The notes under the pieces: model-generated
Database searches by the model: none
Seen by the model: only the letters and a program-made list of their open reading frames with translations
What the model was told of the DNA's origin: nothing
Program-made: the position numbers and the translations under genes
Shown here: piece after piece, positions 10,973-52,748 of the stretch
Numbering within the stretch: the stretch's first letter is position 1
How the letters are laid out: each line of letters begins with the position of its first letter
DNA from: a virus
Taxonomy: Duplodnaviria > Caudoviricetes
Length of the DNA stretch: 64,000 nt
Virus record (IMG/VR): IMGVR_UViG_3300021387_000141
Location: 1-64,000 of that record
Strand: one strand, 5' to 3'

Positions 10973-10998
10973 TCGCAGTTTTTGCATCTCCTTAAATG
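10973..10998 (+). promoter_or_regulatory. Phage promoter-like motif TCGC-N7-RCA-N4-CT-N2-WWTG
   Basis: tcgc agttttt gca tctcct taaatg. Confidence 0.75.
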
Positions 10999-11045
10999 AG
11001 CAGACATGGATGATCTGCTCTTTATTTTTAAAAGGAGAAAAAAAA

Positions 11046-11270
11046 ATGAAAATTTTAAAAAAAATCAATTATATATTGACAATTGTTGTCAATATCGTAT
11101 TTGTTGGTTCCTTTATTAAAGGAGCCGTTTTGGAAGCTTATAAAAGCTTTGAAAAGAAAAATGCACCGAAATACGGTGCTGACGTATTTGGGATCGAAAT
11201 AGATGATCCCATAATCGAAGAAGAGGAACTGTCAGATTATGAACAGTTCATATTTAGAAGGAAGAAATAA
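11046..11270 (+). CDS. Small single-pass membrane protein (cassette ORF)
   Basis: RBS aaaggag; hydrophobic ILTIVVNIVFVGSFI; acidic tail. Confidence 0.7.
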   Translation: MKILKKINYILTIVVNIVFVGSFIKGAVLEAYKSFEKKNAPKYGADVFGIEIDDPIIEEEELSDYEQFIFRRKK

Positions 11271-11273
11271 AAA

Positions 11274-11297
11274 AGCCCGCAAGGGCTACTCTTTTTT
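11274..11297 (+). terminator. Intrinsic terminator of cassette family
   Basis: agccc-gcaa-gggct followed by a T run. Confidence 0.7.
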
Positions 11298-11322
11298 CGC
11301 GAAATTTACACGCCCTATAATG
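11297..11322 (+). promoter_or_regulatory. Phage promoter-like motif
   Basis: tcgc gaaattt aca cgccct ataatg. Confidence 0.75.
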
Positions 11323-11343
11323 AAAAGAAGAGTCTGCGTAAAA

Positions 11344-11399
11344 TCGCAATCGTAACATCTTCTTTTCTTTTTTTCGCCGGATTTACAACTTCTTTTATT
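11344..11399 (+). promoter_or_regulatory. Two degenerate tandem copies of the promoter-like motif (11344, 11374)
   Basis: tcgc aatcgta aca tcttct; tcgc cggattt aca acttct. Spacing kept, 3' end degenerate. Confidence 0.5.
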
Positions 11400-11429
11400 T
11401 TTTGCGCCGGTTTGTGCACTTTAACGGAT

Positions 11430-11774
11430 ATGATCATTCTTGAGTGCGAACCGGTCAATTATACTGACTTTATCCGGATCATTTATAAAAAGCCGGTTTA
11501 TTGTCCGGATTGTCAAACCGGGCTGGCGATGTGGCATTACGGTTATCGGAAGCGGAAGATCCGGGATTTTCAGGGAAATATCTACTGGATCCAGCTGCCG
11601 CGCTATCGATGCCAGCAGTGCGGGAAAATGTATCTGACGCTCCCCTCCTTTCTGATCCCTTATAAACAATATGACCGGTCCACGATCCAAAGCATTCAAA
11701 ATGGTTTGACCTATGGATGCGGCGCCAGTTATCAAAGTATCTATCTCTGGTCGCGATATGCGCAAGCCCTCTAA
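11430..11774 (+). CDS. Zinc-ribbon protein resembling DUF6431 (transposase-associated type)
   Basis: CPDC...YGYRKRKIRD..WIQLPRYRCQQCGK..LPSFLIPYKQY; no adjacent transposase catalytic gene seen. Confidence 0.6.
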   Translation: MIILECEPVNYTDFIRIIYKKPVYCPDCQTGLAMWHYGYRKRKIRDFQGNIYWIQLPRYRCQQCGKMYLTLPSFLIPYKQYDRSTIQSIQNGLTYGCGASYQSIYLWSRYAQAL

Positions 11775-11776
11775 TG
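11751..11776 (+). promoter_or_regulatory. Phage promoter-like motif
   Basis: tcgc gatatgc gca agccct ctaatg. Confidence 0.75.
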
Positions 11777-11818
11777 AGGAGAGACAAACTATATTACTAC
11801 TCTCCTCTGGAGGAAAAA

Positions 11819-12169
11819 ATGAAAAAGATTAATAAAATTTGTGTATTAATAGCAATAATCTTTGCTATTATAGCCGCTGCGGCGCTTGCCGCAGAATATT
11901 ATTTTTCGCGCAATGAAGTATTTGCGCAATCAAATACTGGTAGCTATTGCTACCGAAACGGCGAATGCCGTATCGCTGTCAAAGGTGATGAAAACGAAAT
12001 TTTCTTCGTTCTTGTAAATGGGGATGAAGAAATGATTAATGTAAAGTGGCATTTGGCCCCTATAGGCTTTAATGCTGATAGTCCTGAATGGGATGAATAC
12101 GAGTATATCTGGTGGAGTTCAAACCTGCCACCGGAATATGGGGATCGATACGTAATCCCCGAATTGTAA
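11819..12169 (+). CDS. Membrane-anchored/exported hypothetical protein (cassette ORF)
   Basis: RBS ggagg; signal-anchor ICVLIAIIFAIIAAAALAA. Confidence 0.7.
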   Translation: MKKINKICVLIAIIFAIIAAAALAAEYYFSRNEVFAQSNTGSYCYRNGECRIAVKGDENEIFFVLVNGDEEMINVKWHLAPIGFNADSPEWDEYEYIWWSSNLPPEYGDRYVIPEL

Positions 12170-12181
12170 TTATAAATAAGT

Positions 12182-12207
12182 AGCCCCTAACAAGGGCTCT
12201 TATTTTT
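12182..12207 (+). terminator. Intrinsic terminator of cassette family
   Basis: agccc-ctaacaa-gggct then tatttt. Confidence 0.65.
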
Positions 12208-12232
12208 CGCAAGATTTACAGCTCCTATATTG
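12207..12232 (+). promoter_or_regulatory. Phage promoter-like motif
   Basis: tcgc aagattt aca gctcct atattg. Confidence 0.75.
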
Positions 12233-12280
12233 AGAGACAGACAGTCTCTCATAAATTTTAATTTAAAGGAGGGTTTCCAG

Positions 12281-12463: not shown

Positions 12464-12517
12464 AAAGGAGGAACGAGCCCTACATGGGCTCTAAATTTTC
12501 AACTCCTTTTATTTTTT

Positions 12518-12543
12518 TCGCATAAATCGCAGCTCCTAAAATA
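12518..12543 (+). promoter_or_regulatory. Phage promoter-like motif
   Basis: tcgc ataaatc gca gctcct aaaata. Confidence 0.7.
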
Positions 12544-12582
12544 GAGGACAAATGCCCTTTAATATTTTTACAGGAGTAAAAA

Positions 12583-12669: not shown

Positions 12670-12680
12670 AAGGAATAAAA

Positions 12681-13163: not shown

Positions 13164-13412
13164 ATGAAAGATTTTATGAATGGCAATGTGCCGGTATCGA
13201 TAGCGGCAAAAGTGTATGGCAAAGACCCCAGCTGGGTTCGGGCCGGTTTGATCAACGGATGGCTGCCGATCGGGAATGCCACCCGGAACGGAAAACGAAT
13301 AACTTCGATCGAAGAAATGGACAGCCGGTTGGGGCGGATCAACTATTATATTTCCCCAAAGCTGCTGTATGAGCAGACGGGCTATATCTGGAAAGGAGAA
13401 CGGCATTTATGA
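13164..13412 (+). CDS. Small HTH-like DNA-binding protein (excisionase/Cro-like candidate)
   Basis: VPVSIAAKVYGKDPSWVRAGL...YYISPKLL resembles winged-HTH Xis-type proteins; RBS aaggag. Confidence 0.5.
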   Translation: MKDFMNGNVPVSIAAKVYGKDPSWVRAGLINGWLPIGNATRNGKRITSIEEMDSRLGRINYYISPKLLYEQTGYIWKGERHL

Positions 13413-13825
13413 GCACCGATATCCGCCCGGAAATTTCCAAACGCAATTCGTATTGGATCAGCAAACACCGTTTCTACGAGCTGAAGCACTTCTGTCTGCA
13501 GTATCCGGAATGGCAGGAAGAGCTGAAATTGATATCCGTCGGGAAGCATCCGCTGGCAGAAGAAAAAATCGGAAAATCCGCCGGTCCTGGAGACCCGGTT
13601 TTGGCCTGTGTGCTGCGCAGGGAAGTTTTATCCGATCATATTGATATTCTCAATCAGGCGGCAAAAGGTTGCAGGGAGGAACTGAGAAAATATGTCTTTA
13701 AGGGAGTTACTGAGGGCATTTCGTACGAGCATCTGGCTGCTCAGACAGGTCTGCCCTGTTGTAAAGAAATGTATTATGAGAATTTCCGGAGGTTCTTCTG
13801 GGCGCTCTCGAAACTGCGGAAATAA
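13409..13825 (+). CDS. Putative phage transcriptional regulator (ArpU/sigma region 4-like)
   Basis: ISKHRFYELKHFCLQYPEW N-terminus; C-terminal GVTEGISYEHL helical segment. Confidence 0.45.
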   Translation: MSTDIRPEISKRNSYWISKHRFYELKHFCLQYPEWQEELKLISVGKHPLAEEKIGKSAGPGDPVLACVLRREVLSDHIDILNQAAKGCREELRKYVFKGVTEGISYEHLAAQTGLPCCKEMYYENFRRFFWALSKLRK

Positions 13826-13826: not shown

Positions 13827-13852
13827 TCGCGAAATTTACATGTTCTATAGTG
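13827..13852 (+). promoter_or_regulatory. Phage promoter-like motif
   Basis: tcgc gaaattt aca tgttct atagtg. Confidence 0.7.
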
Positions 13853-13894
13853 AGATTCAGAAGGAGGATCTCTCTATTTAGAAAGGAGTGTGTT

Positions 13895-13903: not shown

Positions 13904-13913
13904 GTTGTAAAAA

Positions 13914-13940
13914 GAGCCCTTACATGGGCTCTCATTTTTT
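13914..13940 (+). terminator. Intrinsic terminator of cassette family
   Basis: gagccc-ttacat-gggctc then T run. Confidence 0.7.
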
Positions 13941-13941: not shown

Positions 13942-13967
13942 CCGCGAAATTTACATGGCCTAAAGTG
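13942..13967 (+). promoter_or_regulatory. Phage promoter-like motif
   Basis: ccgc gaaattt aca tggcct aaagtg. Confidence 0.65.
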
Positions 13968-14000
13968 GAGCTAGTTTACATTTTATAGAAAGGAGTAAAA

Positions 14001-14097: not shown

Positions 14098-14123
14098 TCG
14101 TGATAAAAACATGGACTCTAATG
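14098..14123 (+). promoter_or_regulatory. Phage promoter-like motif
   Basis: tcgt gataaaa aca tggact ctaatg. Confidence 0.6.
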
Positions 14124-14210
14124 AAAAGAAGTTAAAGCAGCGTAAGCTGTGAGTGGGCGACGGGTCTTGTCTGCCCGCCTGGAATGGTTCGATTCCGTTC
14201 AACTTCTTTT
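14124..14210 (+). ncRNA. tRNA-like structured RNA, possibly Y RNA-like (YrlA-type)
   Basis: Closing stem aaaagaagtt/aacttctttt; hairpin gcagc-gtaa-gctgt; stem gggcgac-gggtctt-gtctgccc; T-arm gaatgg-TTCGATT-ccgttc; no CCA and non-canonical anticodon loop. Confidence 0.65.
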
Positions 14211-17098: not shown

Positions 17099-17124
17099 TC
17101 GCAAAATTTTCATCTCCTTAAATG
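17099..17124 (+). promoter_or_regulatory. Phage promoter-like motif
   Basis: tcgc aaaattt tca tctcct taaatg. Confidence 0.7.
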
Positions 17125-17173
17125 AAGAGACTGCAGGGTCTCTTTTATTTTTTAAATAAGGAAAGGAAAACGA

Positions 17174-19624: not shown

Positions 19625-19650
19625 TCGCGAAATTTACACCTCCTTAAATG
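19625..19650 (+). promoter_or_regulatory. Phage promoter-like motif
   Basis: tcgc gaaattt aca cctcct taaatg. Confidence 0.75.
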
Positions 19651-19702
19651 AAGAGACATTTGGTCTCTTTTAATTTTTTGTAATTTAAACTAAGGAGGTT
19701 TA

Positions 19703-22186: not shown

Positions 22187-22212
22187 TCGCGAAAAAAACA
22201 AAGGCTTTAAAG
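22187..22212 (+). promoter_or_regulatory. Phage promoter-like motif
   Basis: tcgc gaaaaaa aca aaggct ttaaag. Confidence 0.65.
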
Positions 22213-22266
22213 AGAGACAGACAGTCTCTCTTTATTTTTTCAAAAAAGGAACGAAAGGAAAATATT

Positions 22267-26056: not shown

Positions 26057-26303
26057 CCATAAGAAATATGACAACAATGATTTTTATCAAAACGGGAAAG
26101 ATCTGCAGCGTCTTGAAGATCAGATGACCATGCAGCAGCTTATCAATAAAGATCATGACCGCAGGCTGCGTTTTGCCGGACTCGGGATCATCACCCTTTC
26201 CGGGCTGACTTATTTGTGTGTCAGCTGTATCAAAGAACTTTATCAGCGCATAAGAAAACTGGAAGAACGGAACGAACCGACCGAAAAGAATGATGAGGCC
26301 TGA
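26043..26303 (+). CDS. Small membrane-anchored protein
   Basis: FAGLGIITLSGLTYLCV helix; overlaps start of the polymerase gene. Confidence 0.6.
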   Translation: MKFNNHKKYDNNDFYQNGKDLQRLEDQMTMQQLINKDHDRRLRFAGLGIITLSGLTYLCVSCIKELYQRIRKLEERNEPTEKNDEA

Positions 26304-29300
26304 TGGATTTTTTAGAGATCACCGAATCTGAAACAAAAAAAGGTACGGAGATCTATCCAAGCTTCATTGTCAACAACAAAACAACTGATCTGATGGTTCG
26401 CGGTAAAGATTTTTATGCCGTGTGGGTCGAAGAAAAAGGAATGTGGTCCACGGACGAACAGGACCTGATCGAACTGGTCGACAGCGAACTGGACCAATAT
26501 TACGAAGCAAACAAGGGCAAATGGGAACGGCGTCCGAAAATTCTTCATCTTCGCCGTGGAAACACAAAGATGATCGATGTTTTTCATCATTACTGCAAAG
26601 ATCAGATGCGTGAAAACTTTCATCCGCTGGATGAAAAATTGATATTTGCAAACCAGAAAACGAAAAAGAAGGACTATGCCAGTAAAAGATTGAACTATCC
26701 TTTGGAAAAAGGTCCGATCACCGCATGGGACCATATCCTGTCCGTTTTATATTCTGATGAAGAACGTCATAAGATCGAATGGTCCATTGGTTCGATCATC
26801 AGCGGAGATTCGAAAACGAATCAGAAGTTCGCGGTATTTTACGGACCCCCGGGTTCCGGTAAATCCACCATTCTGGACGTTATTGAGAAACTGTTCAAAG
26901 GATATTATTGTGTGTTCGATGCAAAATCGTTAGGCTCTTCCAACAGCCGTTTTGCATTGGAACCGTTCAAGATCAATCCGCTGGTCGCGATCCAGCATGA
27001 CGGTGATCTATCCAAAATTGAAGATAACCATTTGCTGAATTCGATCGTTTCTCATGATGAAATCCAAATCGAAGAAAAATTCAAAAGCCAATACCCGATG
27101 CGCTTTAAATGTTTTCTCTTTATGGGGACAAACAAGCCGGTGCGGATCACAGATGCAAAGTCCGGTCTGCTGCGGCGTCTGATTGATATTTCCCCGAAAG
27201 GGAAAGAAAAAATTCCCCGAAAAGAGTACAACGCACTGATCAAAATGATCGACTTTGAACTTGGTGCGATCGCGTGGCACTGCAAACAGGTCTATCTGGA
27301 AGACCCGCAGTATTACGACGACTATGTACCTTTGAAGATGTTGAACGCGTCAAATGATTTCTTTAATTTTGTCGCGGACAACTATTTTGTATTTAAAAAT
27401 GAAGACGGAATTACCCGGAATGCCGCTTATGAAAAGTATAAGGCTTATTGTGATGAAGCCAAGGTGACCTATCCGCTTTCCAGGCGCGCTTTCGGGGAAG
27501 AACTGACAAACTATTTTGATAATTTTGCGGACCGTGTTGTTCTGGAAGACGGGACCCGTGTACGAAGCTGGTACAGCGGTTTCCGTTCTGATAAATTTGA
27601 ACAGCAATGGAAAAAGAAGGATGAACCGGCAGAAAAGGATCCGAAAGAAAGATCCTGGCTGGAATTCAACAGCAAAGTAAGCCTGTTGGATGAAATGTTG
27701 AAAGATTGCCCTGCGCAATATGCAAACAGTGAAGGAACACCTCAGAAAGCATGGGACAGCTGTTTTACCAAACTTTCCGGGATCGATACGCATAAACTGC
27801 ATTATGTGAAAGTTCCGCTGCAGCATATTGTTATTGACTTTGATATTCCGGATGAAAACGGAAATAAGTGCTTTGAAAAAAATCTGGAAGCAGCTTCAAA
27901 ATGGCCACCGACTTATGCCGAACTCAGCAAAAGCGGAGCCGGGATCCACCTTCATTATATTTATCAGGGGGATCCGCTGGAACTGCGGATGAATTATGAT
28001 GACCACATTGAGATCAAGGTTTTTAATGGCGGCAGCAGCCTGCGAAGAATGCTGACACTGTGTAATACGATTGCCGTAGCCGTGATCAGTTCCGGTCTCC
28101 CCTTGAAGGAGAAAAAGAAAGTGGTAAATTTCAAGTCGTTCATCAACGACAAAGCGCTGATCAAAGCCATTGAACGAAACCTGAACAAAGAAAATGTGAA
28201 CGGCACATACAACAGCGTCAATCTGATCTATAAGGATCTGGAACGGGCTTATGCGGACGGCCTCCGTTATGACGTGCGGAAAATGAAGGACTCAATCCAT
28301 GATTTCGCCGCCAATTCGACGCATCATGACAAAGAAGCGATCAAGCTGGTCAACAAAATGAAGCTCTGTTCGGATGATTTTCTGGAACCTGAACCGATCC
28401 CTGAAGAGCAACCACAGACGAACTTCCCATTGATATTTTTCGATGTGGAAGTTTTTATTAATCTGCTGCTGATCTGCTGGAAGTATCCGGGTCCGGATAA
28501 AAAAGTCATACGGATGTTCAACCCCAGTCCCGAAGAGGTCTACTCACTGATGACCAATTACCGGCTGGTCGGGTTCAACTGCCGCAGATATGACAACCAT
28601 ATTCTGTATGCAAGAGCGCTCGGAAAAAACCTGAAACAGATCTATGAAGTTTCTCAGGGCATTATCAATAAAGATAAAAATGCATTTTTCCGGGAAGCGT
28701 ATGATGTTTCCTATACGGATATTTATGACTTCAGCAGTGTGAAACAATCTCTGAAAAAATTTGAGATCGATCTCGGGATCCATCATAAGGAATTGCCGAT
28801 CCCATGGGATCAGCCCTGTCCGGAGGAACGATGGAATGAAGTAGCGGAATATTGTGATAATGATGTGATCGCTACGGAAGCGGTGTTCAACGCCCGTCAG
28901 GATGATTTTCTGGCAAGGGAAATTCTGGCAGACATTGCCGGAATGAACGTAAACACCACGACCAACACGCTGACCACGCGGATCATTTTCGGAACAGACC
29001 GCGCGCCGCAGAACCAGTTCAATTATCGGAACCTTGCGGAACCGGTCGGTGCGGATCAGTATCAGAAGTATCGTGAACTTTTTGGAGCGGATTATGAATT
29101 TCGAGTATTTGACGAACGGGGATTGCCGCTGTACGAAACCTATCAGGGAGGACAGCTCTCGGCTGGATACTCTATCCTTCCGTTCTTCCCCGGATATGAA
29201 TTCGATGCCGGCAAATCCACCTATCTTGGTGATGAGATCGGAGAAGGCGGACGTGTATATGCTGAACCCGGCATGTATGCAGATGTGGATGCGGAAGACG

Positions 29301-30322
29301 TGACCTCCATGCACCCGCATTCGATCTGGGCGGAACGCTTGTTCGGTCCGAAATACAGCAAAAAGTTCTATGACCTGGTTGAGATCCGTGTAGCGATCAA
29401 AAAGGCGATCAAAACCGGAAATTATGACGATGCTTCCATGCTGATGGAAGGCAAGCTGACGAAATGGCTGACCAACGAAGACCAGGCAAAAGGCCTCGCG
29501 AACGCTTTGAAGATCGCGATCAACTCCGTATACGGTCTGACCAGCGCCCGGTTTGAAAACCCGTTCCGTGATATTCGGAACAAGGACAACATCGTTGCCA
29601 AACGCGGCGCTTTATTTATGACACTGCTGAAGCAGGAAGTCCAAAAGAGGGGTTTTCAGGTCTGCCATATTAAGACCGACTGTATCAAGATCCCGAATGC
29701 CACCCCGGAGATCATTGATTTCGTAAGGACATTCGGTAAAGAATTCGGTTACAGTTTCGAATGTGAAGCGCTTTATGACCGGTTCTGTCTGGTTAACGAC
29801 GCCGTTTATATTGCTCATGATAAAAACTGGCGCAAAGCGGTCGAAAAAGAAAAGGACCCGGTGAAAAAAGCAAAACTGGAACTGCTGAAAGGCTGGACCG
29901 CGACCGGGACCCAATTCCAGATCCCGTATGTGTTCAAAACCTTATTCACCCGGGAGCCGATCGAATTTGAAGATATGTGCGAAACCAAGCAGGTTACCAC
30001 CTGTTTATATCTGGATAAAGATGAAAATCTTCCGGAAGGTGAGCATGATTATCAATTCGTCGGACGCGTCGGCCAGTTTTGTCCGGTGAAATCCGGGCGG
30101 AACGGCGGACGGCTCGTTCGGGAAGCGACCGATAAAAACGGAAACGTCAAATACGATTCCGCCACCGGTGCGAAAGATTACCGCTGGATGGAATCGGAAG
30201 ATATCCGTGACTTCGGAAACGCAGATTATTGGATCGACCGCGGATATTATGACCGTCTGGTGGATGAAGCAGTCAATGATATTTCACAGTATGGCAATAT
30301 CGATTGGTTCCGTGATGTGTAA
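26303..30322 (+). CDS. Fused SF3 helicase - primase-like - family B DNA polymerase (with 3'-5' exonuclease)
   Basis: Walker A GPPGSGKST; IVIDFD...ELSKSGAGIHLHY prim-pol-like motifs; Exo I FFDVEV, Exo II GFNCRRYD, Exo III YCDND; PolB motifs DVTSMHP, KIAINSVYG, KTDC. Confidence 0.88.
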   Translation: MDFLEITESETKKGTEIYPSFIVNNKTTDLMVRGKDFYAVWVEEKGMWSTDEQDLIELVDSELDQYYEANKGKWERRPKILHLRRGNTKMIDVFHHYCKDQMRENFHPLDEKLIFANQKTKKKDYASKRLNYPLEKGPITAWDHILSVLYSDEERHKIEWSIGSIISGDSKTNQKFAVFYGPPGSGKSTILDVIEKLFKGYYCVFDAKSLGSSNSRFALEPFKINPLVAIQHDGDLSKIEDNHLLNSIVSHDEIQIEEKFKSQYPMRFKCFLFMGTNKPVRITDAKSGLLRRLIDISPKGKEKIPRKEYNALIKMIDFELGAIAWHCKQVYLEDPQYYDDYVPLKMLNASNDFFNFVADNYFVFKNEDGITRNAAYEKYKAYCDEAKVTYPLSRRAFGEELTNYFDNFADRVVLEDGTRVRSWYSGFRSDKFEQQWKKKDEPAEKDPKERSWLEFNSKVSLLDEMLKDCPAQYANSEGTPQKAWDSCFTKLSGIDTHKLHYVKVPLQHIVIDFDIPDENGNKCFEKNLEAASKWPPTYAELSKSGAGIHLHYIYQGDPLELRMNYDDHIEIKVFNGGSSLRRMLTLCNTIAVAVISSGLPLKEKKKVVNFKSFINDKALIKAIERNLNKENVNGTYNSVNLIYKDLERAYADGLRYDVRKMKDSIHDFAANSTHHDKEAIKLVNKMKLCSDDFLEPEPIPEEQPQTNFPLIFFDVEVFINLLLICWKYPGPDKKVIRMFNPSPEEVYSLMTNYRLVGFNCRRYDNHILYARALGKNLKQIYEVSQGIINKDKNAFFREAYDVSYTDIYDFSSVKQSLKKFEIDLGIHHKELPIPWDQPCPEERWNEVAEYCDNDVIATEAVFNARQDDFLAREILADIAGMNVNTTTNTLTTRIIFGTDRAPQNQFNYRNLAEPVGADQYQKYRELFGADYEFRVFDERGLPLYETYQGGQLSAGYSILPFFPGYEFDAGKSTYLGDEIGEGGRVYAEPGMYADVDAEDVTSMHPHSIWAERLFGPKYSKKFYDLVEIRVAIKKAIKTGNYDDASMLMEGKLTKWLTNEDQAKGLANALKIAINSVYGLTSARFENPFRDIRNKDNIVAKRGALFMTLLKQEVQKRGFQVCHIKTDCIKIPNATPEIIDFVRTFGKEFGYSFECEALYDRFCLVNDAVYIAHDKNWRKAVEKEKDPVKKAKLELLKGWTATGTQFQIPYVFKTLFTREPIEFEDMCETKQVTTCLYLDKDENLPEGEHDYQFVGRVGQFCPVKSGRNGGRLVREATDKNGNVKYDSATGAKDYRWMESEDIRDFGNADYWIDRGYYDRLVDEAVNDISQYGNIDWFRDV

Positions 30323-33055: not shown

Positions 33056-33318
33056 TCGTTTTATATTCAACCGGATGCCCGCTTTGTAAAACTCTTGAAA
33101 TGAAGTTAAACCAGGCGGGCGTCTCTTATACCAAAATTACGGATACCGAAGAGATGGAAAAGCTTGGTTTGCAATCTGTGCCGGTGCTTTCCGTGAATGG
33201 TGAACTGATGTATTTTTCAGATGCGATGAAATACGTATCCGGTAACCTTTCAGGAAGCATCCACATGGCTAACGAGGAGAACCGAATAAATGAAGATCAA
33301 CATCAAACTGGATCCTGA
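33052..33318 (+). CDS. nrdH: Glutaredoxin/NrdH-like redoxin
   Basis: YSTGCPLC CxxC motif; SVPVL cis-Pro motif. Confidence 0.8.
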   Translation: MIVLYSTGCPLCKTLEMKLNQAGVSYTKITDTEEMEKLGLQSVPVLSVNGELMYFSDAMKYVSGNLSGSIHMANEENRINEDQHQTGS

Positions 33319-35209
33319 TTTTTCTTATGAATTTACAAAATTGAAAAGCATTTATGGTGAAGATCTGGCTGCGCTGAACGGACTTTCGGACAGCCAACTG
33401 GATTACACCGATTTTATTGATAACTTTATTGATACCGAAACGGTGGCGGACGCTTCCGTGGATGCAAATGCCAACGTTTCCAACAAATCCGTAGTCACGC
33501 TGCTGAATGAAATGGCAAAACCGCATCAGAAGCTGCTGGCTTTCAATAAGATATTTTATGAAATGAAAAAGAAATATGGCCTCGAAACTGCCAGACACTG
33601 GCTGGAAACGGAATGGATCGGTGCGCTTTATATGCATGATGCGCATCATGCCTCTTACCTGCATTACTGCTGGGCATCCAGCCTGCAGGACCTGGCGGAA
33701 AAAGGCCTGTACTTCATTGATAATTTCAATGCGGAACCCCCGAAACATTTGGGGACTTTTGTTGATTTTGTCAAGGAGTTCATCAGCTTCTGCGCAAACA
33801 GCTCCTCCGGTGCGGTCGGGCTCCCGGATCTGATCATCTATATGTATTATTTCTGGGATCGGGATATCCAAAAAGACTATTACACCGAAACACCGGTGAA
33901 GTACGCTAAACAGCAGATCCAGCGGCTGATCTATGCTTTGAACCAGCCGTTCCTGCGCGGAAACATTCAATCCGCTTTTACCAATACTTCTATTTTTGAC
34001 CATCCTTATCTGGAAGCGCTGTTCGGCGGGATGACTTTTCCGGATGGAAAGCTCATGTATGACGAGATCGAAGAGATCATGAATTTCCAGAAACTTTTTA
34101 TGGAAACCATGCATGAAATTCGGGAAAAGAACATGATGACTTATCCGGTCAACACGATCAGTCTGCTGAAAGATGAAAACGGAAACTTTGTGGATGAGCC
34201 TTTTGCTGAATGGGCCTGCGAACAGAACATGAAGTGGTGCGACAGCAATTTCTTCATTGATGACTCGGTCACCAGCCTCAGTTCCTGCTGCCGGCTTTCC
34301 AACAACGTGAAAGACCTTTACATGAACTCGATCGGCGGCACCGCGCTGAAGGTCGGTTCGGAAAAGGTGAACACGATCAATCTGGCGATGATCGCTTATG
34401 AATCCAAAGGTGAAAAGGACAAATACTTTGATATTCTGAAAGATCGTGTTGAGATCTGCCTGAAGGCTTTGGATGTCGTCCGTCATATCATCCAGCGGAA
34501 TATCGAAAAAGGGCTGATGAAGAACTTTGATAAAGGCATCGTGGAAATGGATAAACTGTATTCCACGATCGGGATCATCGGGATCTATGAAACACTGGAA
34601 AAATTCGGCTATGTAAAAAAAGACGATTTCGGCTACACCACCTATACGGAAGAAGGATTGACATTTGCCGAAGAGATCCTGAAGTTCATCCATAAAATGA
34701 AAGATGAATTTAAAAAGGATCAGGCCGTTGACTACATGATCAACATCGAAGCCGTCCCGGCGGAAAGCGCCGCGGCAAAGCTGATGCAGAAAAACAAGAT
34801 TCTGTTCCCGGATGAAAAGTATGACCTTCCGCTTTACGCGAACCAGTGGATTCCGCTGGCGGTTCGCACTTCGATCCAGAACAAGATTGATATTTCCGCA
34901 CGGCTGGATGAAGCCTGTACCGGCGGGTCGATCTGCCATATTAATATTGACAGCCCATTCCAGAGCTTTGATATTGCCTGGGACCTGCTGCGGGATCTGG
35001 CGAAATCCGGCGTGAAGTATTTCGCTTTCTGCACCCGGATCAGCGCCTGTAAACACAACCATGGTTTTTACGGCGAAACCTGTCCGGTCTGCGGAGAAAA
35101 GAAAGTGACGACTTACCAGCGGATCGTCGGATTTCTGACACCCGTACGGAGCTACAGTGAGCCGCGTAAGGAGGAATTCTATATGCGGGATTGGATGAAA
35201 GTCGAATGA
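33290..35209 (+). CDS. nrdD: Anaerobic (class III) ribonucleoside-triphosphate reductase, no ATP cone
   Basis: YMHD N-terminal motif; SSCCRL finger loop; EAVPAESAA; C-terminal CKHNH..CPVC zinc site and glycyl-radical loop YQRIVGFL. Confidence 0.9.
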   Translation: MKINIKLDPDFSYEFTKLKSIYGEDLAALNGLSDSQLDYTDFIDNFIDTETVADASVDANANVSNKSVVTLLNEMAKPHQKLLAFNKIFYEMKKKYGLETARHWLETEWIGALYMHDAHHASYLHYCWASSLQDLAEKGLYFIDNFNAEPPKHLGTFVDFVKEFISFCANSSSGAVGLPDLIIYMYYFWDRDIQKDYYTETPVKYAKQQIQRLIYALNQPFLRGNIQSAFTNTSIFDHPYLEALFGGMTFPDGKLMYDEIEEIMNFQKLFMETMHEIREKNMMTYPVNTISLLKDENGNFVDEPFAEWACEQNMKWCDSNFFIDDSVTSLSSCCRLSNNVKDLYMNSIGGTALKVGSEKVNTINLAMIAYESKGEKDKYFDILKDRVEICLKALDVVRHIIQRNIEKGLMKNFDKGIVEMDKLYSTIGIIGIYETLEKFGYVKKDDFGYTTYTEEGLTFAEEILKFIHKMKDEFKKDQAVDYMINIEAVPAESAAAKLMQKNKILFPDEKYDLPLYANQWIPLAVRTSIQNKIDISARLDEACTGGSICHINIDSPFQSFDIAWDLLRDLAKSGVKYFAFCTRISACKHNHGFYGETCPVCGEKKVTTYQRIVGFLTPVRSYSEPRKEEFYMRDWMKVE

Positions 35210-38302: not shown

Positions 38303-39481
38303 ATGATTGAACTTTACGACTACCAGGCGGATGCGGTTCGGCGCATGAAAAACGGCTGCATCCTCTGCGGTGGAGTCGGAAGCGGAAAATCCAGAACGGC
38401 ATTGGCCTATTATTTTACACAATACGGCGGAGATCTGAAAAAGCCCAAAAAGCTGAAAGGAGCTCCGCCTCTTTTTATTATCACAACGGCCCGCAAACGG
38501 GACACACAGGAGTGGGAGAAGGAACTGGAACCGTTTAATATTTCGGCGAAGGTGATCGATTCCTGGAATAAGATCAAAGATTACCGTGAGGTGGAAAATG
38601 GGTTCTTTATATTTGATGAGCAGCGTGTCGTGGGATATGGCACCTGGGCAAAAAGTTTCATCCGTATCGCCAGACATAACCGATGGATACTTCTTTCGGC
38701 CACGCCGGGAGACACCTGGTCTGACTATATACCTGTCTTCATCGCCAACGGATTTTACAAAAACAAATCTGAGTTTGTATCAAGACATGTTATATGGAGT
38801 CACTTCGCCAAGTTTCCAAAGATCGACCATTATGTCGGACAGGCCGTTCTGAACCGTTACCGGAAAGATATTCTGGTGACAATGGACTTTCATCGGGAAG
38901 CGGTGCAGCACCATGAAGATATCTGGTGCGAGTATGACCCACTGATTTATAAAAGTCTGATCAAGACACGCTGGGATCTTTTCAAAGAGAAACCGATGGA
39001 AAACGCCGGAGAGCTTTGTTATTGTCTCAGAAGGGTCGTAAATACGGACGACACCCGTGCACAGGAGATCCAACGCCTGACTAAACAGCACCCGAAGGTG
39101 ATCATTTTCTACAACTTTGACTATGAGCTGGAGCTGCTGAAAGATATTTCGTATACCCAAGGGACTACAGTCGCGGAATGGAACGGGCATAAGCATGAGC
39201 CGATTCCGGAGACGGACCGCTGGGTCTACCTGGTGCAGTATACCGCCGGATGCGAAGGCTGGAACTGCACGGAAACGGATACGATCATATTTTTCAGCCA
39301 GAATTATTCTTATAAAGTCATGCTGCAGGCGTCGGGACGCATCGACCGCCTGAACACGCCATTTAAAGATCTTTATTATTATCACCTGAAGTCGCACAGC
39401 AGCATCGACCTGGCGATCCTCAAAGCGCTGAAGCTGAAAAAGAATTTTAACGAAAAAAGTTTCGTCGAAGGATCGCAATAA
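38303..39481 (+). CDS. Superfamily 2 DNA helicase
   Basis: LYDYQ Q-motif, GVGSGKS Walker A, FDEQ, LSATP, QASGRIDR motif VI. Confidence 0.88.
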   Translation: MIELYDYQADAVRRMKNGCILCGGVGSGKSRTALAYYFTQYGGDLKKPKKLKGAPPLFIITTARKRDTQEWEKELEPFNISAKVIDSWNKIKDYREVENGFFIFDEQRVVGYGTWAKSFIRIARHNRWILLSATPGDTWSDYIPVFIANGFYKNKSEFVSRHVIWSHFAKFPKIDHYVGQAVLNRYRKDILVTMDFHREAVQHHEDIWCEYDPLIYKSLIKTRWDLFKEKPMENAGELCYCLRRVVNTDDTRAQEIQRLTKQHPKVIIFYNFDYELELLKDISYTQGTTVAEWNGHKHEPIPETDRWVYLVQYTAGCEGWNCTETDTIIFFSQNYSYKVMLQASGRIDRLNTPFKDLYYYHLKSHSSIDLAILKALKLKKNFNEKSFVEGSQ

Positions 39482-39498
39482 GAACATCTCCTCATATG
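39473..39498 (+). promoter_or_regulatory. Phage promoter-like motif
   Basis: tcgc aataaga aca tctcct catatg (overlaps the helicase stop). Confidence 0.7.
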
Positions 39499-39512
39499 AA
39501 AGGAGATTAAAA

Positions 39513-39655: not shown

Positions 39656-39681
39656 TCGCATAAATAACATATGCTAATATG
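39656..39681 (+). promoter_or_regulatory. Phage promoter-like motif
   Basis: tcgc ataaata aca tatgct aatatg. Confidence 0.65.
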
Positions 39682-39886
39682 GAAAACTAATTTGTAGTTT
39701 TTTGTAAATATGAGCCGAGTAGCAAGCTGCTGTGAAAGGCTGGAAGTATAGTATGCAGCGGTTTATTTTGTAAATTCCGGTACAAAATAAATGCGAATTA
39801 TCCCGGAATAGTACTGTAATTTATGTGGTTTTAGCAGTACTGGATATATAAACCACAAATGAATAAGAGCCCTTCATGGGCTCTTA
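39682..39886 (+). ncRNA. Candidate structured RNA with two tandem H-type pseudoknots
   Basis: No RBS-led ORF between promoter 39656 and terminator 39866-39885; pairings listed under findings. Confidence 0.6.
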
Positions 39887-39891
39887 AAATT

Positions 39892-39917
39892 TCGCAGGAT
39901 TTGCATCTCCTAAAATG
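39892..39917 (+). promoter_or_regulatory. Phage promoter-like motif
   Basis: tcgc aggattt gca tctcct aaaatg. Confidence 0.75.
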
Positions 39918-39957
39918 GAGGACAAAAGTCCTCTAAAAATTTTTTAGGAGAAAAAAA

Positions 39958-40404: not shown

Positions 40405-40415
40405 GCAGGTAAAAA

Positions 40416-40440
40416 AGAGTCCGCAAGGACTCTTAAATTT
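40416..40440 (+). terminator. Intrinsic terminator of cassette family
   Basis: aagagtcc-gcaa-ggactctt. Confidence 0.7.
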
Positions 40441-40466
40441 TCGCGTAAATTACAGCTCCTGTAATG
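40441..40466 (+). promoter_or_regulatory. Phage promoter-like motif
   Basis: tcgc gtaaatt aca gctcct gtaatg. Confidence 0.75.
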
Positions 40467-40509
40467 AGAGGACATGGATGATCCTCTTATTAATTTATAG
40501 GAGTAAATT

Positions 40510-40710: not shown

Positions 40711-40743
40711 TTAATAAAAAGAGTCCGCAAGGGCTCTTATTTT

Positions 40744-40769
40744 TCGCATAAATTACAACTCCTATAATG
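40744..40769 (+). promoter_or_regulatory. Phage promoter-like motif
   Basis: tcgc ataaatt aca actcct ataatg. Confidence 0.75.
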
Positions 40770-40816
40770 AGAGGACACGGATGATCCTCTTATTATTTTT
40801 AAAAAAGGAGATAATT

Positions 40817-41402: not shown

Positions 41403-41606
41403 ATGAAGAGAGTTTATTTGGTATTGTACAGTCCGTTTTGGAATGGAATGATTGCACCGGAATGTATTGAAAAAGCATTCGCATCTAAACATATGGCAGA
41501 AGAATATATTCATGATCAGTGTATTAAATGTGGCTGCGACAGATCCTCTTATGAAATTTACAGTATTAATGTAGAAAATTCATCGCGATATGAACAAAGC
41601 CTTTAA
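41403..41606 (+). CDS. Small hypothetical protein
   Basis: RBS gaggag; MKRVYLVLY...KAFASKHMAEEYI. Confidence 0.6.
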   Translation: MKRVYLVLYSPFWNGMIAPECIEKAFASKHMAEEYIHDQCIKCGCDRSSYEIYSINVENSSRYEQSL

Positions 41607-41608
41607 TA
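41583..41608 (+). promoter_or_regulatory. Phage promoter-like motif
   Basis: tcgc gatatga aca aagcct ttaata. Confidence 0.65.
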
Positions 41609-41742
41609 GAGAAAGAGAAAGGTCGTAAGGACGCATCAAAGGACTGAACACCCATTGATGAACGGATCACTGTCAAAGTTCAGGGCAGTATTCGTACAAG
41701 AGGGAATTACGGCCCCTTGAGTATCAGGTACTTTTATTTTTT
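41609..41742 (+). ncRNA. Candidate non-coding cassette RNA
   Basis: Between two promoter motifs, no well-spaced RBS-ATG; stems ctgaac/gttcag, gtc-gtaag-gac, caag.ggg/ccc.cttg; ends in a T run. Confidence 0.35.
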
Positions 41743-41745
41743 CAA

Positions 41746-41771
41746 TCGCGATTTAAACAGCTCCTTTAATG
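41746..41771 (+). promoter_or_regulatory. Phage promoter-like motif
   Basis: tcgc gatttaa aca gctcct ttaatg. Confidence 0.75.
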
Positions 41772-41815
41772 AAGAGAGACAAGCAGTCTCTCTAATTTTT
41801 TAAAGGAGATAAAAA

Positions 41816-42102: not shown

Positions 42103-42128
42103 TCGCAAAATTTACAGCTCCTTTAATG
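42103..42128 (+). promoter_or_regulatory. Phage promoter-like motif
   Basis: tcgc aaaattt aca gctcct ttaatg. Confidence 0.75.
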
Positions 42129-42170
42129 AAGAGAGACAAGCAGTCTCTCTAAATTTTTAAGGAGATAAAA

Positions 42171-45064: not shown

Positions 45065-45090
45065 TCGCAGGATTTACAAAGCCTATATTG
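45065..45090 (+). promoter_or_regulatory. Phage promoter-like motif
   Basis: tcgc aggattt aca aagcct atattg. Confidence 0.75.
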
Positions 45091-45136
45091 AGCAGACATG
45101 GATGATCTGCTCTTTATTTTTAAATAGGAGAAAAAA

Positions 45137-45355
45137 GTGGAAACTATTGTTGTAGTTTGTGCTGTTGTCGCTACTGCGACATTTGTTGTTAAAACAATCG
45201 TTTCCTGGATTAAATCCGGGAAATACGAAAAGGAAGCGGCTTTGCGCCGCAAAGAAAATGAAACGCGAAGGGCGACCTTCGCAGAAGCCAGGCTGAACCG
45301 CCTGGAAGAAAAACTGAAAGAAAAAGAAAATGTCAATGAGGACATTGATTGGTAA
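45137..45355 (+). CDS. Small membrane-anchored protein (cassette ORF, GTG start)
   Basis: IVVVCAVVATATFVV; RBS aggag; terminator gagtccgcaagggctc follows. Confidence 0.7.
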   Translation: METIVVVCAVVATATFVVKTIVSWIKSGKYEKEAALRRKENETRRATFAEARLNRLEEKLKEKENVNEDIDW

Positions 45356-45602: not shown

Positions 45603-45628
45603 TCGCGATATGCGCATGGCCTCTAATG
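45603..45628 (+). promoter_or_regulatory. Phage promoter-like motif
   Basis: tcgc gatatgc gca tggcct ctaatg. Confidence 0.75.
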
Positions 45629-45670
45629 AGGAGAGATAAACTATATTACAACTCTCCTCTGGAGGAAAAA

Positions 45671-46066
45671 ATGACATCAATGTATAAAGTAGTTGTATCC
45701 ACTATTGGATACAATCCAAATAATGAATGCCCAGAAAATCTCTGGGTAAATGTGAGCGATCCTAAACGGATCGTATCAAATAAAGCGCTTGGGCGTTTAA
45801 ATGCCCAAGTGATAAAATTGAACAATGAAGTCGAAAGACTTCAATCTACTAATGGGTATTATGTACCCAGAAGAGACTACTTTTTCTACGTCGAAAAAGA
45901 CGTAGAACATATAGGTAGGATTCAAATCCGCTATGAAGATAATGGCGGATACACTTACGAACCAGAGTACGAGTTGGTTATTACTGCCAACTCGGCTAGA
46001 CAGGCCCGAAGATGGGCCTTGAAGTGGACATTATTTAAAGTCCATAAATGGGAGATAGAGGATTAA
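45671..46066 (+). CDS. Hypothetical protein (cassette ORF)
   Basis: RBS ggagg; leader nearly identical to that of 11819. Confidence 0.72.
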   Translation: MTSMYKVVVSTIGYNPNNECPENLWVNVSDPKRIVSNKALGRLNAQVIKLNNEVERLQSTNGYYVPRRDYFFYVEKDVEHIGRIQIRYEDNGGYTYEPEYELVITANSARQARRWALKWTLFKVHKWEIED

Positions 46067-50770: not shown

Positions 50771-50852
50771 GCTTCATACTCACTGATATTTCAAACCAAG
50801 GCCCGTGAGATTTGCACGGGCTTTTATTTTTTAAAGGAGAACAACAAATACT

Positions 50853-51035
50853 ATGCCGGGAGATCCCTATCGCAAAGAACAACTGGTATTAAAAATTTAC
50901 AAGTATCTGGATGAAGGATATTTGGTCAGCGAGATCGCTGAAATTCTGGACATGCCGGAAGAAAAGATCTGGCAGATCATTGAGTCCGTTGAAAAGGAAG
51001 ACGAACCGAAAGGTTATGAATATTATCGAAGGTAA
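50853..51035 (+). CDS. Small HTH protein
   Basis: EGYLVSEIAEILDMPEEKIWQII. Confidence 0.7.
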   Translation: MPGDPYRKEQLVLKIYKYLDEGYLVSEIAEILDMPEEKIWQIIESVEKEDEPKGYEYYRR

Positions 51036-51038
51036 GCC

Positions 51039-51308
51039 ATGAACACATGCTACTGGAACTGCCTCAGCTGGAACAAGCTCACTTCTCCTGAAATGATCGA
51101 CAAAGATATTCTGATCATTTACCGCGGACCGGACTTTGATGATATTCATCTGGCCCCGCAGAAAGTCGTTCAGATCATCGGGACCGATCATGTGGAGAAC
51201 GAGCGGGTCCTCATTGTTTATGATCACGATGAGGATGATATTTTTCTGATCACCCGGGAGGGCAAAGGCCGTCTCTGGGAGACCTATCAGATCATGGAAG
51301 GGTTTTGA
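51039..51308 (+). CDS. Hypothetical protein
   Basis: Intact ORF in operon. Confidence 0.65.
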   Translation: MNTCYWNCLSWNKLTSPEMIDKDILIIYRGPDFDDIHLAPQKVVQIIGTDHVENERVLIVYDHDEDDIFLITREGKGRLWETYQIMEGF

Positions 51309-51311
51309 TTT

Positions 51312-51512
51312 ATGACACAGCCGATCAGTAATGTTATTTCCGGTGTGAAATGCTGCATCAGTGATTGCGGGACCGCTTCCCACTGCAAGAGTTGTCCGTA
51401 CGACTCTTTAGATCCCGAAAAGGAATCCTGCGAGGATGCGCTGGCCCGTGACATTTTAGTATATTTAACAAACTATGAAGAACTTTTAGAAAAAGTTCCT
51501 TGTACGGAGTAA
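51312..51512 (+). CDS. Cys-rich small protein
   Basis: CC..C...C..CPY..C...L; paralog of the next gene. Confidence 0.65.
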   Translation: MTQPISNVISGVKCCISDCGTASHCKSCPYDSLDPEKESCEDALARDILVYLTNYEELLEKVPCTE

Positions 51513-51514
51513 GA

Positions 51515-51796
51515 ATGGCAATCAGAAAAGATCTTGATCAAGTGATCGAAGGATTTTTACAATGTGAATATCGAGACTGCACCTGTACCGCCTGTCCTTA
51601 TAACGAATCAGACGATTGTACGGCCGAACTGCGGGATGATATTTGGTATTACCTGCATCAGTTATATTTGCAGGAACAACCGACGACGATCGAACAGCCG
51701 CCGCTTCCGGGTCTGGAAGCAGAACCCGAGACGTTTGAAGACAAGCTGGAACGGATCGCGGATATTTTGAAAGAGAAACAACATGAACGAAGATGA
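51515..51796 (+). CDS. Cys-rich small protein, paralog of 51312..51512
   Basis: C...C.C.ACPYN...C..EL..DI..YL. Confidence 0.65.
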   Translation: MAIRKDLDQVIEGFLQCEYRDCTCTACPYNESDDCTAELRDDIWYYLHQLYLQEQPTTIEQPPLPGLEAEPETFEDKLERIADILKEKQHERR

Positions 51797-51962
51797 TGAA
51801 CTGGATCCGCTGGTCCGACAATATTTTGATGCACTTCGGAAGATTGGTGCGCTGTTCATAGAAGCCGCCGATAATTTTCAGAATGACTGTCCTGAACCTG
51901 ACGATGTTGTCGAAGTTTATGAAGTGAAACGGGAGCTTCCGGAGGGTAAAAAAGAATCGTAA
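51783..51962 (+). CDS. 59-aa acidic protein (not in ORF track)
   Basis: MNEDDELDPLVRQYFDALRKIGALFIEAADNFQNDCPEPDDVVEVYEVKRELPEGKKES. Confidence 0.55.
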   Translation: MNEDDELDPLVRQYFDALRKIGALFIEAADNFQNDCPEPDDVVEVYEVKRELPEGKKES

Positions 51963-51974
51963 GGACGCGATTTT

Positions 51975-52260
51975 CTGTGCCCACTTTTGTGGCCAGAAAG
52001 AAGCCAATGCCCACTTTTTTTGAAAACTTGATGATTTTCAGCCTTGGCCAAAATGCAAAATGGCCAGAAAAAGTGGGCACGTGGCCAGTTTTTTTTAAAA
52101 AGTGGGCACGGATTTTTTAGCAATTTCCCGAGTAAAATCGGGCAAAAAAGGGCTTTCTGCCCACTTGCCCACTTTTTTTTCTTATTTAATGCGCAAAGTA
52201 AAAAAATTAAAATATATAATAAATAGAGAAAAAAACTGGCCATCTGGCCACAGCCCATTT
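51975..52260. repeat. Putative replication origin with interspersed repeats
   Basis: Six TGCCCACTT/AAGTGGGCA copies in both orientations and six TGGCCA palindromes, A/T tracts and an AT-rich segment (about 52199-52226) in non-coding DNA. Confidence 0.65.
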
Positions 52261-52332
52261 TTTTACTGATAAAAGGCCCCTCCTTCTGATTTTTCATGCT
52301 ATACTTTGAAAACAGAAAGGAGGTCGAATTCA

Positions 52333-52629
52333 TTGCCCGGTTATTTTTACGATCCTGATTACGGAGCCCGTTTTATGGATCAGTTGGAAGAAGTGTATGA
52401 TCACCACGGAAACTGTATTTTAACAGAATGCTGCGGCGTCTATTGGATGTGGGATCCGTATCATGAAAACTATATTTGTCCGAAGTGCGGAAGAACGGTG
52501 TCACGCAGCTCATTTTTGAAAAACTACGTTCCGGCATACGGCCCGGAATGTTTCAGCTGTCGGACCAACTTTCCGCAGTGTGTTATTTGTCATAAGAACC
52601 ATCAGAAAGAGTTAGATGATAGGGAATAG
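52333..52629 (+). CDS. Zinc-finger protein (TTG start)
   Basis: RBS gaaaggagg; ECCG, CPKCG, CFSC..FPQCVIC. Confidence 0.7.
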   Translation: MPGYFYDPDYGARFMDQLEEVYDHHGNCILTECCGVYWMWDPYHENYICPKCGRTVSRSSFLKNYVPAYGPECFSCRTNFPQCVICHKNHQKELDDRE

Positions 52630-52722
52630 GTCATAGGGACTGGGGAATAGTTTTAATAAGATGACAGCGAAGCTGTCTTCCTATTTTTAACTAGCCCCTA
52701 ATCCCTAACCCCTAAAAAGCTC

Positions 52723-52748
52723 TCGCGAAATTTACATCCCCTCTTATA
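52723..52748 (+). promoter_or_regulatory. Phage promoter-like motif upstream of the nuclease/RNAP operon
   Basis: tcgc gaaattt aca tcccct cttata. Confidence 0.65.

Follow-up and report, generated by a model that had tools for sequence, protein, structure and literature searches.

Which enzyme reads a motif that recurs, in a single orientation, before the early and replication genes of a phage? The DNA analysed here (the window, 64 kb, whose coordinates are used throughout) is the first part of the IMG/VR virus record IMGVR_UViG_3300021387_000141, which is 90,190 bp long and has a terminal repeat of 107 bp. A first-pass annotation had listed 24 copies of a fixed-spacing motif in it and proposed that they are the cognate promoters of a putative phage RNA polymerase. 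Our analysis gives a probability of about 0.7 that the motif is a phage-specific promoter read by the phage’s own predicted two-barrel RNA polymerase, encoded by the open reading frame (ORF) at 53836-56655. The statistics of the motif, the modelled fold of the enzyme and the co-occurrence of motif and gene all uphold that proposal, and that this enzyme is the reader is what we infer from them.

The pattern is present at all 24 positions, and the three dinucleotides said to be invariant, CG (positions 2-3), CA (13-14) and CT (19-20), are so in all 24. Together the copies give the consensus TCGCGAAATTTACA-N4-CT-N-T-A-ATG, then GAGAGA; bases are conserved by identity at spaced positions (2-4, 13-14, 19-20 and 24-26), and no paired structure lies within the motif. 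A 34-nucleotide (nt) weight matrix made from the listed copies gives 22 of them 25-45 bits. Copy 11374, which lacks the G at position 26, scores 22 bits, and copy 11344, which has no TAATG end and falls within the hairpin downstream of copy 11297, scores 13 bits and is probably spurious and non-working. The figure of 24 stands as a count of pattern occurrences, but with 11344 weak and 11374 degenerate the working copies number 22-23 instead.

The annotation had suggested checking enrichment and strand bias on both strands, and by weight matrix the genome holds 25 matches of at least 10 bits, against a chance level of 0.46 for both strands together in first-order Markov shuffles. At 15 bits or more, the whole record has 23 matches on the + strand and none on the minus strand, and there are none within 1-10,900 and 56,700-90,190, which contain the head, tail and lysis genes; the restriction to one strand and the absence from structural genes are both as first described. 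Two look-alikes fall below that threshold, at 3191 (12-13 bits) and at 54745 (14-15 bits, within the polymerase gene). The copies are as follows, each with its matrix score; RBS denotes a ribosome-binding site and aa the length of the product in amino acids.

10973..11004, + strand: motif copy, 35.5 bits; the first past the integrase/switch region; then hairpin, RBS and ATG 11046 (74 aa); leader in common with 45065
11297..11328, + strand: motif copy, 40.9 bits; 10 nt past terminator 11274-11287; then a long hairpin and T-run without an ORF, an orphan unit
11344..11375, + strand: weak look-alike, 13.2 bits; no TAATG; in the hairpin after 11297; probably not functional
11374..11405, + strand: degenerate copy, 22.4 bits; no G at position 26; then an ORF-less structured region to 11750
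11751..11782, + strand: motif copy, 33.2 bits; hairpin, RBS, ATG 11819 (116 aa); leader in common with 45603
12207..12238, + strand: motif copy, 38.0 bits; past terminator 12182-12198; hairpin, RBS, ATG 12281 (60 aa)
12518..12549, + strand: motif copy, 31.7 bits; past terminator 12475-12491; A at position 26 and G at 27; short hairpin, RBS, ATG about 40 nt on
13827..13858, + strand: motif copy, 33.6 bits; 1 nt past the stop of gene 13409-13825; hairpin, then only a two-codon mini-ORF
13942..13973, + strand: motif copy, CCGC variant, 29.7 bits; past terminator 13913-13932
14098..14129, + strand: motif copy, TCGT variant, 27.8 bits; structured 124-nt leader, then ATG 14247 (253 aa)
17099..17130, + strand: motif copy, 40.0 bits; immediately past a stop codon; hairpin, then an operon from ATG 17174
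19625..19656, + strand: motif copy, 43.3 bits; 1 nt past a stop codon; hairpin, then an operon from ATG 19703
22187..22218, + strand: motif copy, 25.1 bits; 1 nt past a stop codon; at the head of the 17-kb replication operon, within which no further copy lies
39473..39504, + strand: motif copy, 35.9 bits; shares 9 nt with the 3′ end of the helicase gene; RBS at positions 29-33; ATG 39513, 15 nt past position 26
39656..39687, + strand: motif copy, 29.5 bits; heads an ORF-less unit to about 39890, a candidate non-coding RNA
39892..39923, + strand: motif copy, 37.6 bits; past hairpin 39864-39886; hairpin, RBS, ATG 39958 (148 aa)
40441..40472, + strand: motif copy, 39.0 bits; past hairpin 40415-40434; hairpin, RBS, ATG 40510 (66 aa)
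40744..40775, + strand: motif copy, 40.7 bits; past terminator 40719-40738; hairpin, then a gene from 40781 or 40817
41583..41614, + strand: motif copy, 30.0 bits; A at position 26 and G at 27; ORF-less stretch to 41745; a similar unit lies in the near relative G001 at 72915
41746..41777, + strand: motif copy, 37.6 bits; hairpin, RBS, ATG 41816 (78 aa)
42103..42134, + strand: motif copy, 44.9 bits, the best match to the consensus; hairpin, RBS, then an operon from ATG 42171
45065..45096, + strand: motif copy, 33.4 bits; hairpin, RBS, GTG 45137 (72 aa); leader in common with 10973
45603..45634, + strand: motif copy, 37.4 bits; 3 nt past a stop codon; hairpin, RBS, then an operon of about 5 kb from ATG 45671
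52723..52754, + strand: motif copy, TTATAGAGAGA subclass, 36.3 bits; then a 273-nt structured leader and an operon of endonuclease, Cas4-like exonuclease and RNA polymerase

Mean pairwise identity among the copies is 67% within the motif and 28-33% in the flanks, and because it drops to about 30% outside the motif most copies are not recent duplications. The pairs 11751/45603 and 10973/45065 are exceptions, sharing their leaders too. In these pairs a cassette of putative promoter plus leader is duplicated (11751-11830 with 45603-45680, and 10973-11050 with 45065-45140; 84-90% identity over +26 to +75) and different genes follow, which suggests that promoter-leader modules move or recombine inside the genome.

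All 23 credible copies are intergenic, one of them overlapping the end of the helicase gene by 9 nt. Five start 0-3 nt past a stop codon, and about nine lie 10-27 nt downstream of a GC-rich hairpin with a T-tail that resembles a terminator; since these nine follow terminators so closely, transcription must restart there. Terminator-like sites are 3.5- to 4.4-fold above shuffles in the motif regions. On the downstream side, a stem-loop (median -10.5 kcal/mol) begins at motif positions 22-29 in 19 of 23 copies, most often at position 26, and an RBS and start codon usually come 40-55 nt downstream of position 26. The layout read by eye in the first-pass annotation, running from stop or terminator through motif and 5′ hairpin to RBS, is typical of the credible copies. 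Between copies the sequence of the downstream hairpins varies while their pairing is preserved, and several also satisfy the definition of a terminator: those at 12231-12251, 17124-17145, 19650-19670, 22208-22234, 39916-39935, 41773-41793 and 42130-42150 have T-rich tails and pass an intrinsic-terminator scan. Such terminator-like 5′ hairpins might both block read-through by host polymerase and protect the RNA 5′ end.

A defined hairpin at a fixed distance after the motif would also be expected if the motif acted in RNA, as a processing or nuclease site that frees hairpin-RBS-gene units from a long precursor, and in relatives the motif precedes tRNA-like genes, the 5′ ends of which normally arise by processing. 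We nevertheless find this explanation highly improbable. The strong terminator-like hairpins just upstream of about nine copies would end the precursor before the motif, and the first copy (10973) follows a divergent integrase region with no + strand operon upstream of it. Conservation by base identity at spaced positions, with no pairing inside the motif, likewise speaks against it.

Copies 11297, 39656 and 41583 head stretches devoid of ORFs, to which the 273-nt leader after 52723 may be added. The units concerned (11323-11750, 39682-39890, 41609-41745 and 52749-53020) are candidate small RNAs or structured leaders. Rfam at its gathering threshold and ARAGORN gave no match anywhere in the 64-kb window. 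In relatives, the equivalent slots hold tRNA-like genes with abnormal anticodon loops (2935-3006 in the Faecalibacterium phage FP_oengus; 26591-26664 in the genome G003).

If the motif is a promoter, it is not one of the sigma-A type, as had been claimed: both the hexamer spacing and the -10 A fail. TTTACA lies 5 bp, and TCGCGA 13 bp, from the TATAAT-like block, where sigma-A needs 16-18. Position 21, which would be the invariant second base of the -10 element, is A in 9, C in 5, G in 1 and T in 9 of the 24 copies, and is A in 45 of 90 sites from six genomes. Sigma-70-like sites are themselves at shuffle level in the motif regions (42 versus 38 +/- 7; 38 versus 41 +/- 7).

The relatives also constrain where the RNA can begin. 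A tRNA-like gene begins at motif position 27 in FP_oengus and at position 29 in G003, and elsewhere in relatives the RBS occupies about motif positions 27-33 and start codons lie 12-19 nt past position 26. The RNA must therefore begin at or before position 27, and a start 6-8 nt past a -10 hexamer is ruled out because it would fall inside these tRNA-like genes and RBSs. The predicted start at the last motif bases is thus forced by what lies downstream, and this constraint fits transcription starting at the conserved G26.

The same evidence bears on a reading in which the host RNA polymerase uses the motif after redirection by a phage protein, either the 939-aa product of ORF 53836-56655 or another, that binds the TCGCGAAA/TTTACA half and leaves the AT-rich half to host sigma or core. 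T4 middle promoters work in this manner, with MotA and AsiA replacing -35 recognition. The downstream half is TATAAT-like in many copies and TTTACA resembles a -35 element, as this reading would have it, but the would-be -11 A at position 21 is not conserved, and the tRNA-like genes and RBSs at 27-33 leave no space for a start at the usual distance. We regard a redirected host enzyme as unlikely. A phage sigma factor was also considered as an alternative reader and rejected: there is no Sigma70_r2 match in the genome, and controls were positive. The profile of T7-like polymerases (PF00940) had no match in the genome, and control genomes were equally silent; the only polymerase candidate is the two-barrel enzyme. 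It and its neighbour are:

53283..53846, + strand: Cas4-like exonuclease, matching PHROG 3953 at 3.5e-80; conserved upstream neighbour of the polymerase gene, so annotated in FP_oengus and Arthrobacter phage Mudcat too
53836..56655, + strand: candidate motif reader, a predicted two-barrel RNA polymerase; single chain, 935-939 aa; RBS-supported start at 53848

The ORF matches PHROG 4291 with 1084 bits over the full length of the profile (residues 34-932 on positions 4-906 of 909). Pfam places helix-turn-helix (HTH) domains at residues 113-149 and 902-933, the latter of which also matches Sigma70_r4_2, and gives a weak match to RNA-dependent RNA polymerase (RdRP) at residues 538-603. A DFDGD catalytic loop is found at residues 547-551, within an SGADFDGD stretch that is invariant in 26 sequences, and many residues are invariant throughout the catalytic region in an alignment of homologues. 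The AlphaFold model, built with 26 homologues as input, has a mean pLDDT (predicted local distance difference test score) of 79, and its best Foldseek matches in the PDB are QDE-1 (E 5e-7) and RDR2, followed by the Thermus-phage proteins P32 gp64 (2.3e-5), P74 gp62 and P23-45 gp96, and then by bacterial beta′. A phmmer search with the polymerase against PDB sequences gave no match, and only the fold comparison yielded relatives. The family is very large: a database search gave over 8,000 proteins with E-values no higher than 1e-10. Sequence and modelled fold both bear out the product of ORF 53836-56655 as a candidate polymerase. Its sigma region 4-like domain would suit a factor that redirects host polymerase as well, but the intact DFDGD loop and the invariant residues of the catalytic region would be unexpected in a mere DNA-binding factor.

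The family had been predicted to be a polymerase, with RdRP-like motifs and HTH domains at both ends, in a preprint (10.1101/842583) that lists an ‘HTH / putative RNA polymerase’ signature protein in Lactococcus phage 1706, FP_oengus and the actinophage clusters AM, AU, AW, BI, CC, DJ and EL, and in which the word ‘promoter’ is absent. Phages with PHROG 4291 share the genome order seen here; the new element is the family-wide promoter-like motif.

The polymerase homologues in G037, G050, G057, G059, G061, G026 and G019 each have exactly one in-frame TGA within an otherwise open match of about 907-919 aa, which sequencing artefacts, recoding or a non-standard genetic code could explain. Fusion of a polymerase to the tape measure, as in P23-45, was looked for and rejected: the tape measure protein lacks DxDxD, and its only Pfam matches are to tape measure and protease-like domains. 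It is a single 5,224-aa ORF at 72198-87872, outside the window, with an N-terminal PF20155 match and a protease-like DUF2268 segment, and at this length it implies an exceptionally long tail, comparable to that of Thermus phage P23-45.

If the polymerase reads the motif, the two should be inherited together. We examined eight other polymerase-bearing genomes, namely five from IMG/VR together with FP_oengus, phage 1706 and Mudcat, and all eight carry the motif, in 7-20 copies each and always on the polymerase strand. The IMG/VR relatives have 11-20 copies each and a G+C content of 34-48%; their polymerases are 74% identical to this one in the nearest and 43-49% in the other four, and those of the three named phages are less than 60% identical (tblastn). 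A family matrix made from 90 sites finds 14 copies in FP_oengus, 11 in phage 1706, in the variant form CACAwGTTTTACA-N5-CTATAGTAGAAAGA, and seven in the non-structural part of Mudcat (20-59 kb read), in each case on the gene strand. Comparing the HTH recognition helices with the 1706 variant, which has CACA for CGCG, gave an alignment with no interpretable co-variation. The motif is almost unchanged between phages of Firmicutes and of Actinobacteria, with G+C contents from 34 to 50%, which weighs further against use by a redirected host polymerase.

Prophages tell the same story. With a pattern of 11 fixed bases, five bacterial genomes of 2.7-5.7 Mb that contain such prophages gave 55 matches, 38 of them clustered on the polymerase strand in prophage-sized stretches; all clusters but one span the polymerase locus or sit within about 20 kb of it, and 1-7 scattered matches per genome lie elsewhere. 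The cultured lysogens that the analysis identified are Hungatella hathewayi WAL-18680, [Ruminococcus] torques ATCC 27756, Cuneatibacter caecimuris DSM 29486, Blautia faecis DFI.3.66 and Lachnospira hominis NSJ-43. Starting from the motif instead, a search with 17 fixed bases, matched exactly, gave at least 119 IMG/VR stretches. The polymerase gene is present in 46 of the 60 motif-bearing records tested, including 27 of 28 at 90% completeness or more and 9 of 9 with terminal repeats, and motif and gene are co-oriented in 46 of 46.

These relatives also help to judge whether the copies are binding sites of a phage regulator and not promoters at all. The model here is the stoperators of Cluster A mycobacteriophages, asymmetric sites that occur in one orientation in many intergenic regions, where the immunity repressor blocks elongation. 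The present copies are likewise many and asymmetric, share one orientation relative to transcription and fill short intergenic gaps, and this phage has an integrase. Yet the motif is absent from the structural operon, and in phage L5 stoperators are present there. Its length of 26-32 nt, with an AT-rich end and then a purine run, is promoter-like, and copies stand immediately past terminators and immediately before tRNA-like genes, positions at which transcription has to begin anew. The motif is also kept in phage 1706, reportedly virulent, and in the part of Mudcat that was read, with no integrase annotated in either. In the phage set of Klyczek et al. (2017), Galaxy alone is named as carrying an integrase. 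We consider a regulator-site function very unlikely.

Several points weigh against the polymerase as the reader of the motif. The co-inheritance is compatible with the polymerase acting alone, with the polymerase and a partner, or with another conserved phage protein that redirects host polymerase, and it fits a specificity factor for the host enzyme equally well. In one genome rated complete, G065, seven same-strand copies occur but the polymerase gene is missing; this linear contig breaks off within the replication module, short of the site that the gene occupies in relatives, and is probably truncated. The phage has an integrase and its polymerase gene itself sits behind a copy of the motif, so that prophage induction needs another source of the first polymerase. 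We found no convincing host-type promoter for the polymerase gene, and an induced prophage would depend on host polymerase at first, as the reading with a redirected host enzyme would have it. In the literature we found no assay of any member of the PHROG 4291 family.

In the mechanism that we propose for the phage polymerase, the promoter would be about 26 bp long, TCGCGAAAtTTACA-N4-CT-N-(T/A)-(A/T)-ATG, with the start at or next to G26 leading into the purine-rich GAGAGA. The fused HTH domains, one of them sigma region 4-like, would replace a sigma factor and read the upstream half, TCGCGAAA plus TTTACA; melting would take place at the AT-rich TAAT block, with G26 as the first transcribed base and the purine run behind it. 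The 22-23 working copies would divide the early and replication half into units, each consisting of terminator, promoter, 5′ hairpin, RBS and one or more genes. The 5′ hairpin would act at the RNA level, probably as a transcript stabiliser; it could also be a stopper of read-through, or both. It is common only in this phage and its 74% relative; because more distant relatives, in which it follows from 2 of 9 to 10 of 17 copies, mostly lack it, it is not part of the promoter.

Copy 52723, the last before a block of about 45 kb with the packaging, head and tail genes, would drive the polymerase operon and, after the genome ends join, may feed transcription into the structural genes that lack copies of their own. 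G001, G003 and FP_oengus have similar copies, ending in TTTTAT(A/G), some 1 kb before the polymerase gene, and so do G002, G004 and G005 in the equivalent region. Positive feedback through copy 52723, as first suggested, is consistent with this layout. The polymerase operon is probably at the right end of the packaged genome. Between it and the packaging genes lies a GC-rich tract at about 57000-57080, with C and G runs around AATCGCGGGGGTCTCC. The contig ends of the 74% relative map to this tract, near 57,046, and the tract is therefore probably a cos site or physical genome end.

The N-terminus of the polymerase, HYGTKRHSGRYPWGSG, is identical in phage 1706 and FP_oengus and resembles the HWGxxGMKWG tag of four head-module proteins. 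More generally, an N-terminal motif H(W/Y/F)G-x(2-6)-G-x-(K/R/Y)-WG is common to head-module proteins, and the polymerase has a variant form of it. The tag-bearing N-termini in the window are:

53965: N-terminus of ORF 53836-56655, the candidate polymerase
59104: N-terminus of ORF 59083-59646
62092: N-terminus of ORF 62044-62958
63062: N-terminus of ORF 62975-63799
61392-62033: ORF with a similar motif

The same tag is found on 1706 orf7, annotated as a structural protein, and on FP_oengus gp69. The shared motif may be a capsid-targeting tag. Judged from its sequence, the tag would fit delivery of the polymerase with the virion, not prophage induction. It is possible, if doubtful, that the system is sigma-free and entirely self-contained: the polymerase would read the 26-bp duplex promoter unaided through its HTH domains, be packed by its HYG...SGRYPWGSG tag, be injected, and transcribe the early genes without host polymerase, and the pair would have been kept from phages of Clostridia and Lactococcus to actinophages.

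Further features of the genome include the replication operon after copy 22187, among whose genes are:

26303-30322: DNA polymerase
33290-35209: NrdD
38303-39481: helicase

The product of the first, of 1,339 aa (PHROG 4210), combines a DNA-polymerase region with a segment that is primase/helicase-like (DUF5906, D5-like); megablast with this gene against the phage collection found no close relative. NrdD, an anaerobic ribonucleotide reductase, fits an anaerobic gut host. In the relative G065, a reverse-transcriptase gene (PHROG 1423; L261, 1630-2826) adjoins a tail-protein-like gene and may be part of a diversity-generating retroelement.

Phage polymerases with promoters of their own are known from T7, N4, P23-45 and AR9/phiKZ. 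P23-45 is the closest mapped case: its virion enzyme gp96 uses an AT-rich motif and its non-virion enzyme gp64 a GC-rich one, and its promoters were mapped by ONT-cappable-seq and ChIP-seq (PMC10770324). Both there and here, single-polypeptide two-barrel phage polymerases go with a multi-copy non-host motif before early genes, and motif and enzyme are common to related phages. The Thermus enzymes (chains 8f72, 8f5m and 8h2m) are among the Foldseek matches of the polymerase, although no sequence similarity to PDB chains was detected. The motif sequences differ, however, and in the present phage HTH domains lie at both ends of the enzyme, there is no tape-measure fusion and the promoters are predicted. 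YonO of the Bacillus prophage SPbeta transcribes late genes from a single start site, its promoter sequence left undefined (PMC5467207). Like the enzyme predicted here, it is a two-barrel DNA-dependent RNA polymerase made of a single chain, and the phage that carries it is a temperate one of Firmicutes; its gene lies just upstream of a long co-directional late operon. The motif described here, by contrast, has 22-23 copies, which precede early and replication genes, and structural genes have none.

In architecture, the putative promoter resembles those of T7 and SP6, which are one contiguous element of about 23-26 bp running into a purine-rich initial transcript, with many copies on one strand and 5′ stem-loops on the transcripts. 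The difference is in the polymerase fold, two-barrel here and right-hand (Pol A family) in T7 and SP6. N4 promoters are DNA hairpins upstream of the start; the hairpin here is downstream of the motif, variable in sequence and loop length, and often absent in distant relatives. The injected-enzyme logic of N4 and crAss-like virion polymerases may still apply, given the likeness of the polymerase N-terminus to the tag. We found no description of the present promoters in the literature; older papers on phage 1706 (2008) and ReqiPepy6 may mention a repeat.

Interest in single-chain two-barrel polymerases, YonO and the P23-45 enzymes among them, comes from their standing as minimal relatives of cellular RNA polymerase, and the motif provides a precise, mutable candidate promoter for a very large branch of this group. 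The gene occurs in prophages of cultured gut Clostridia and in isolated phages of Lactococcus, Faecalibacterium and actinobacteria, and it becomes testable how a polymerase that has no sigma, yet carries fused sigma-4-like HTH domains, finds its promoters. If our reading is right, it would correct the labels ‘RNA-dependent RNA polymerase’ and ‘HTH DNA-binding protein’ now attached to these enzymes, would allow the transcription units of hundreds of sequenced phages to be annotated better, and could yield an orthogonal expression system for Gram-positive bacteria.

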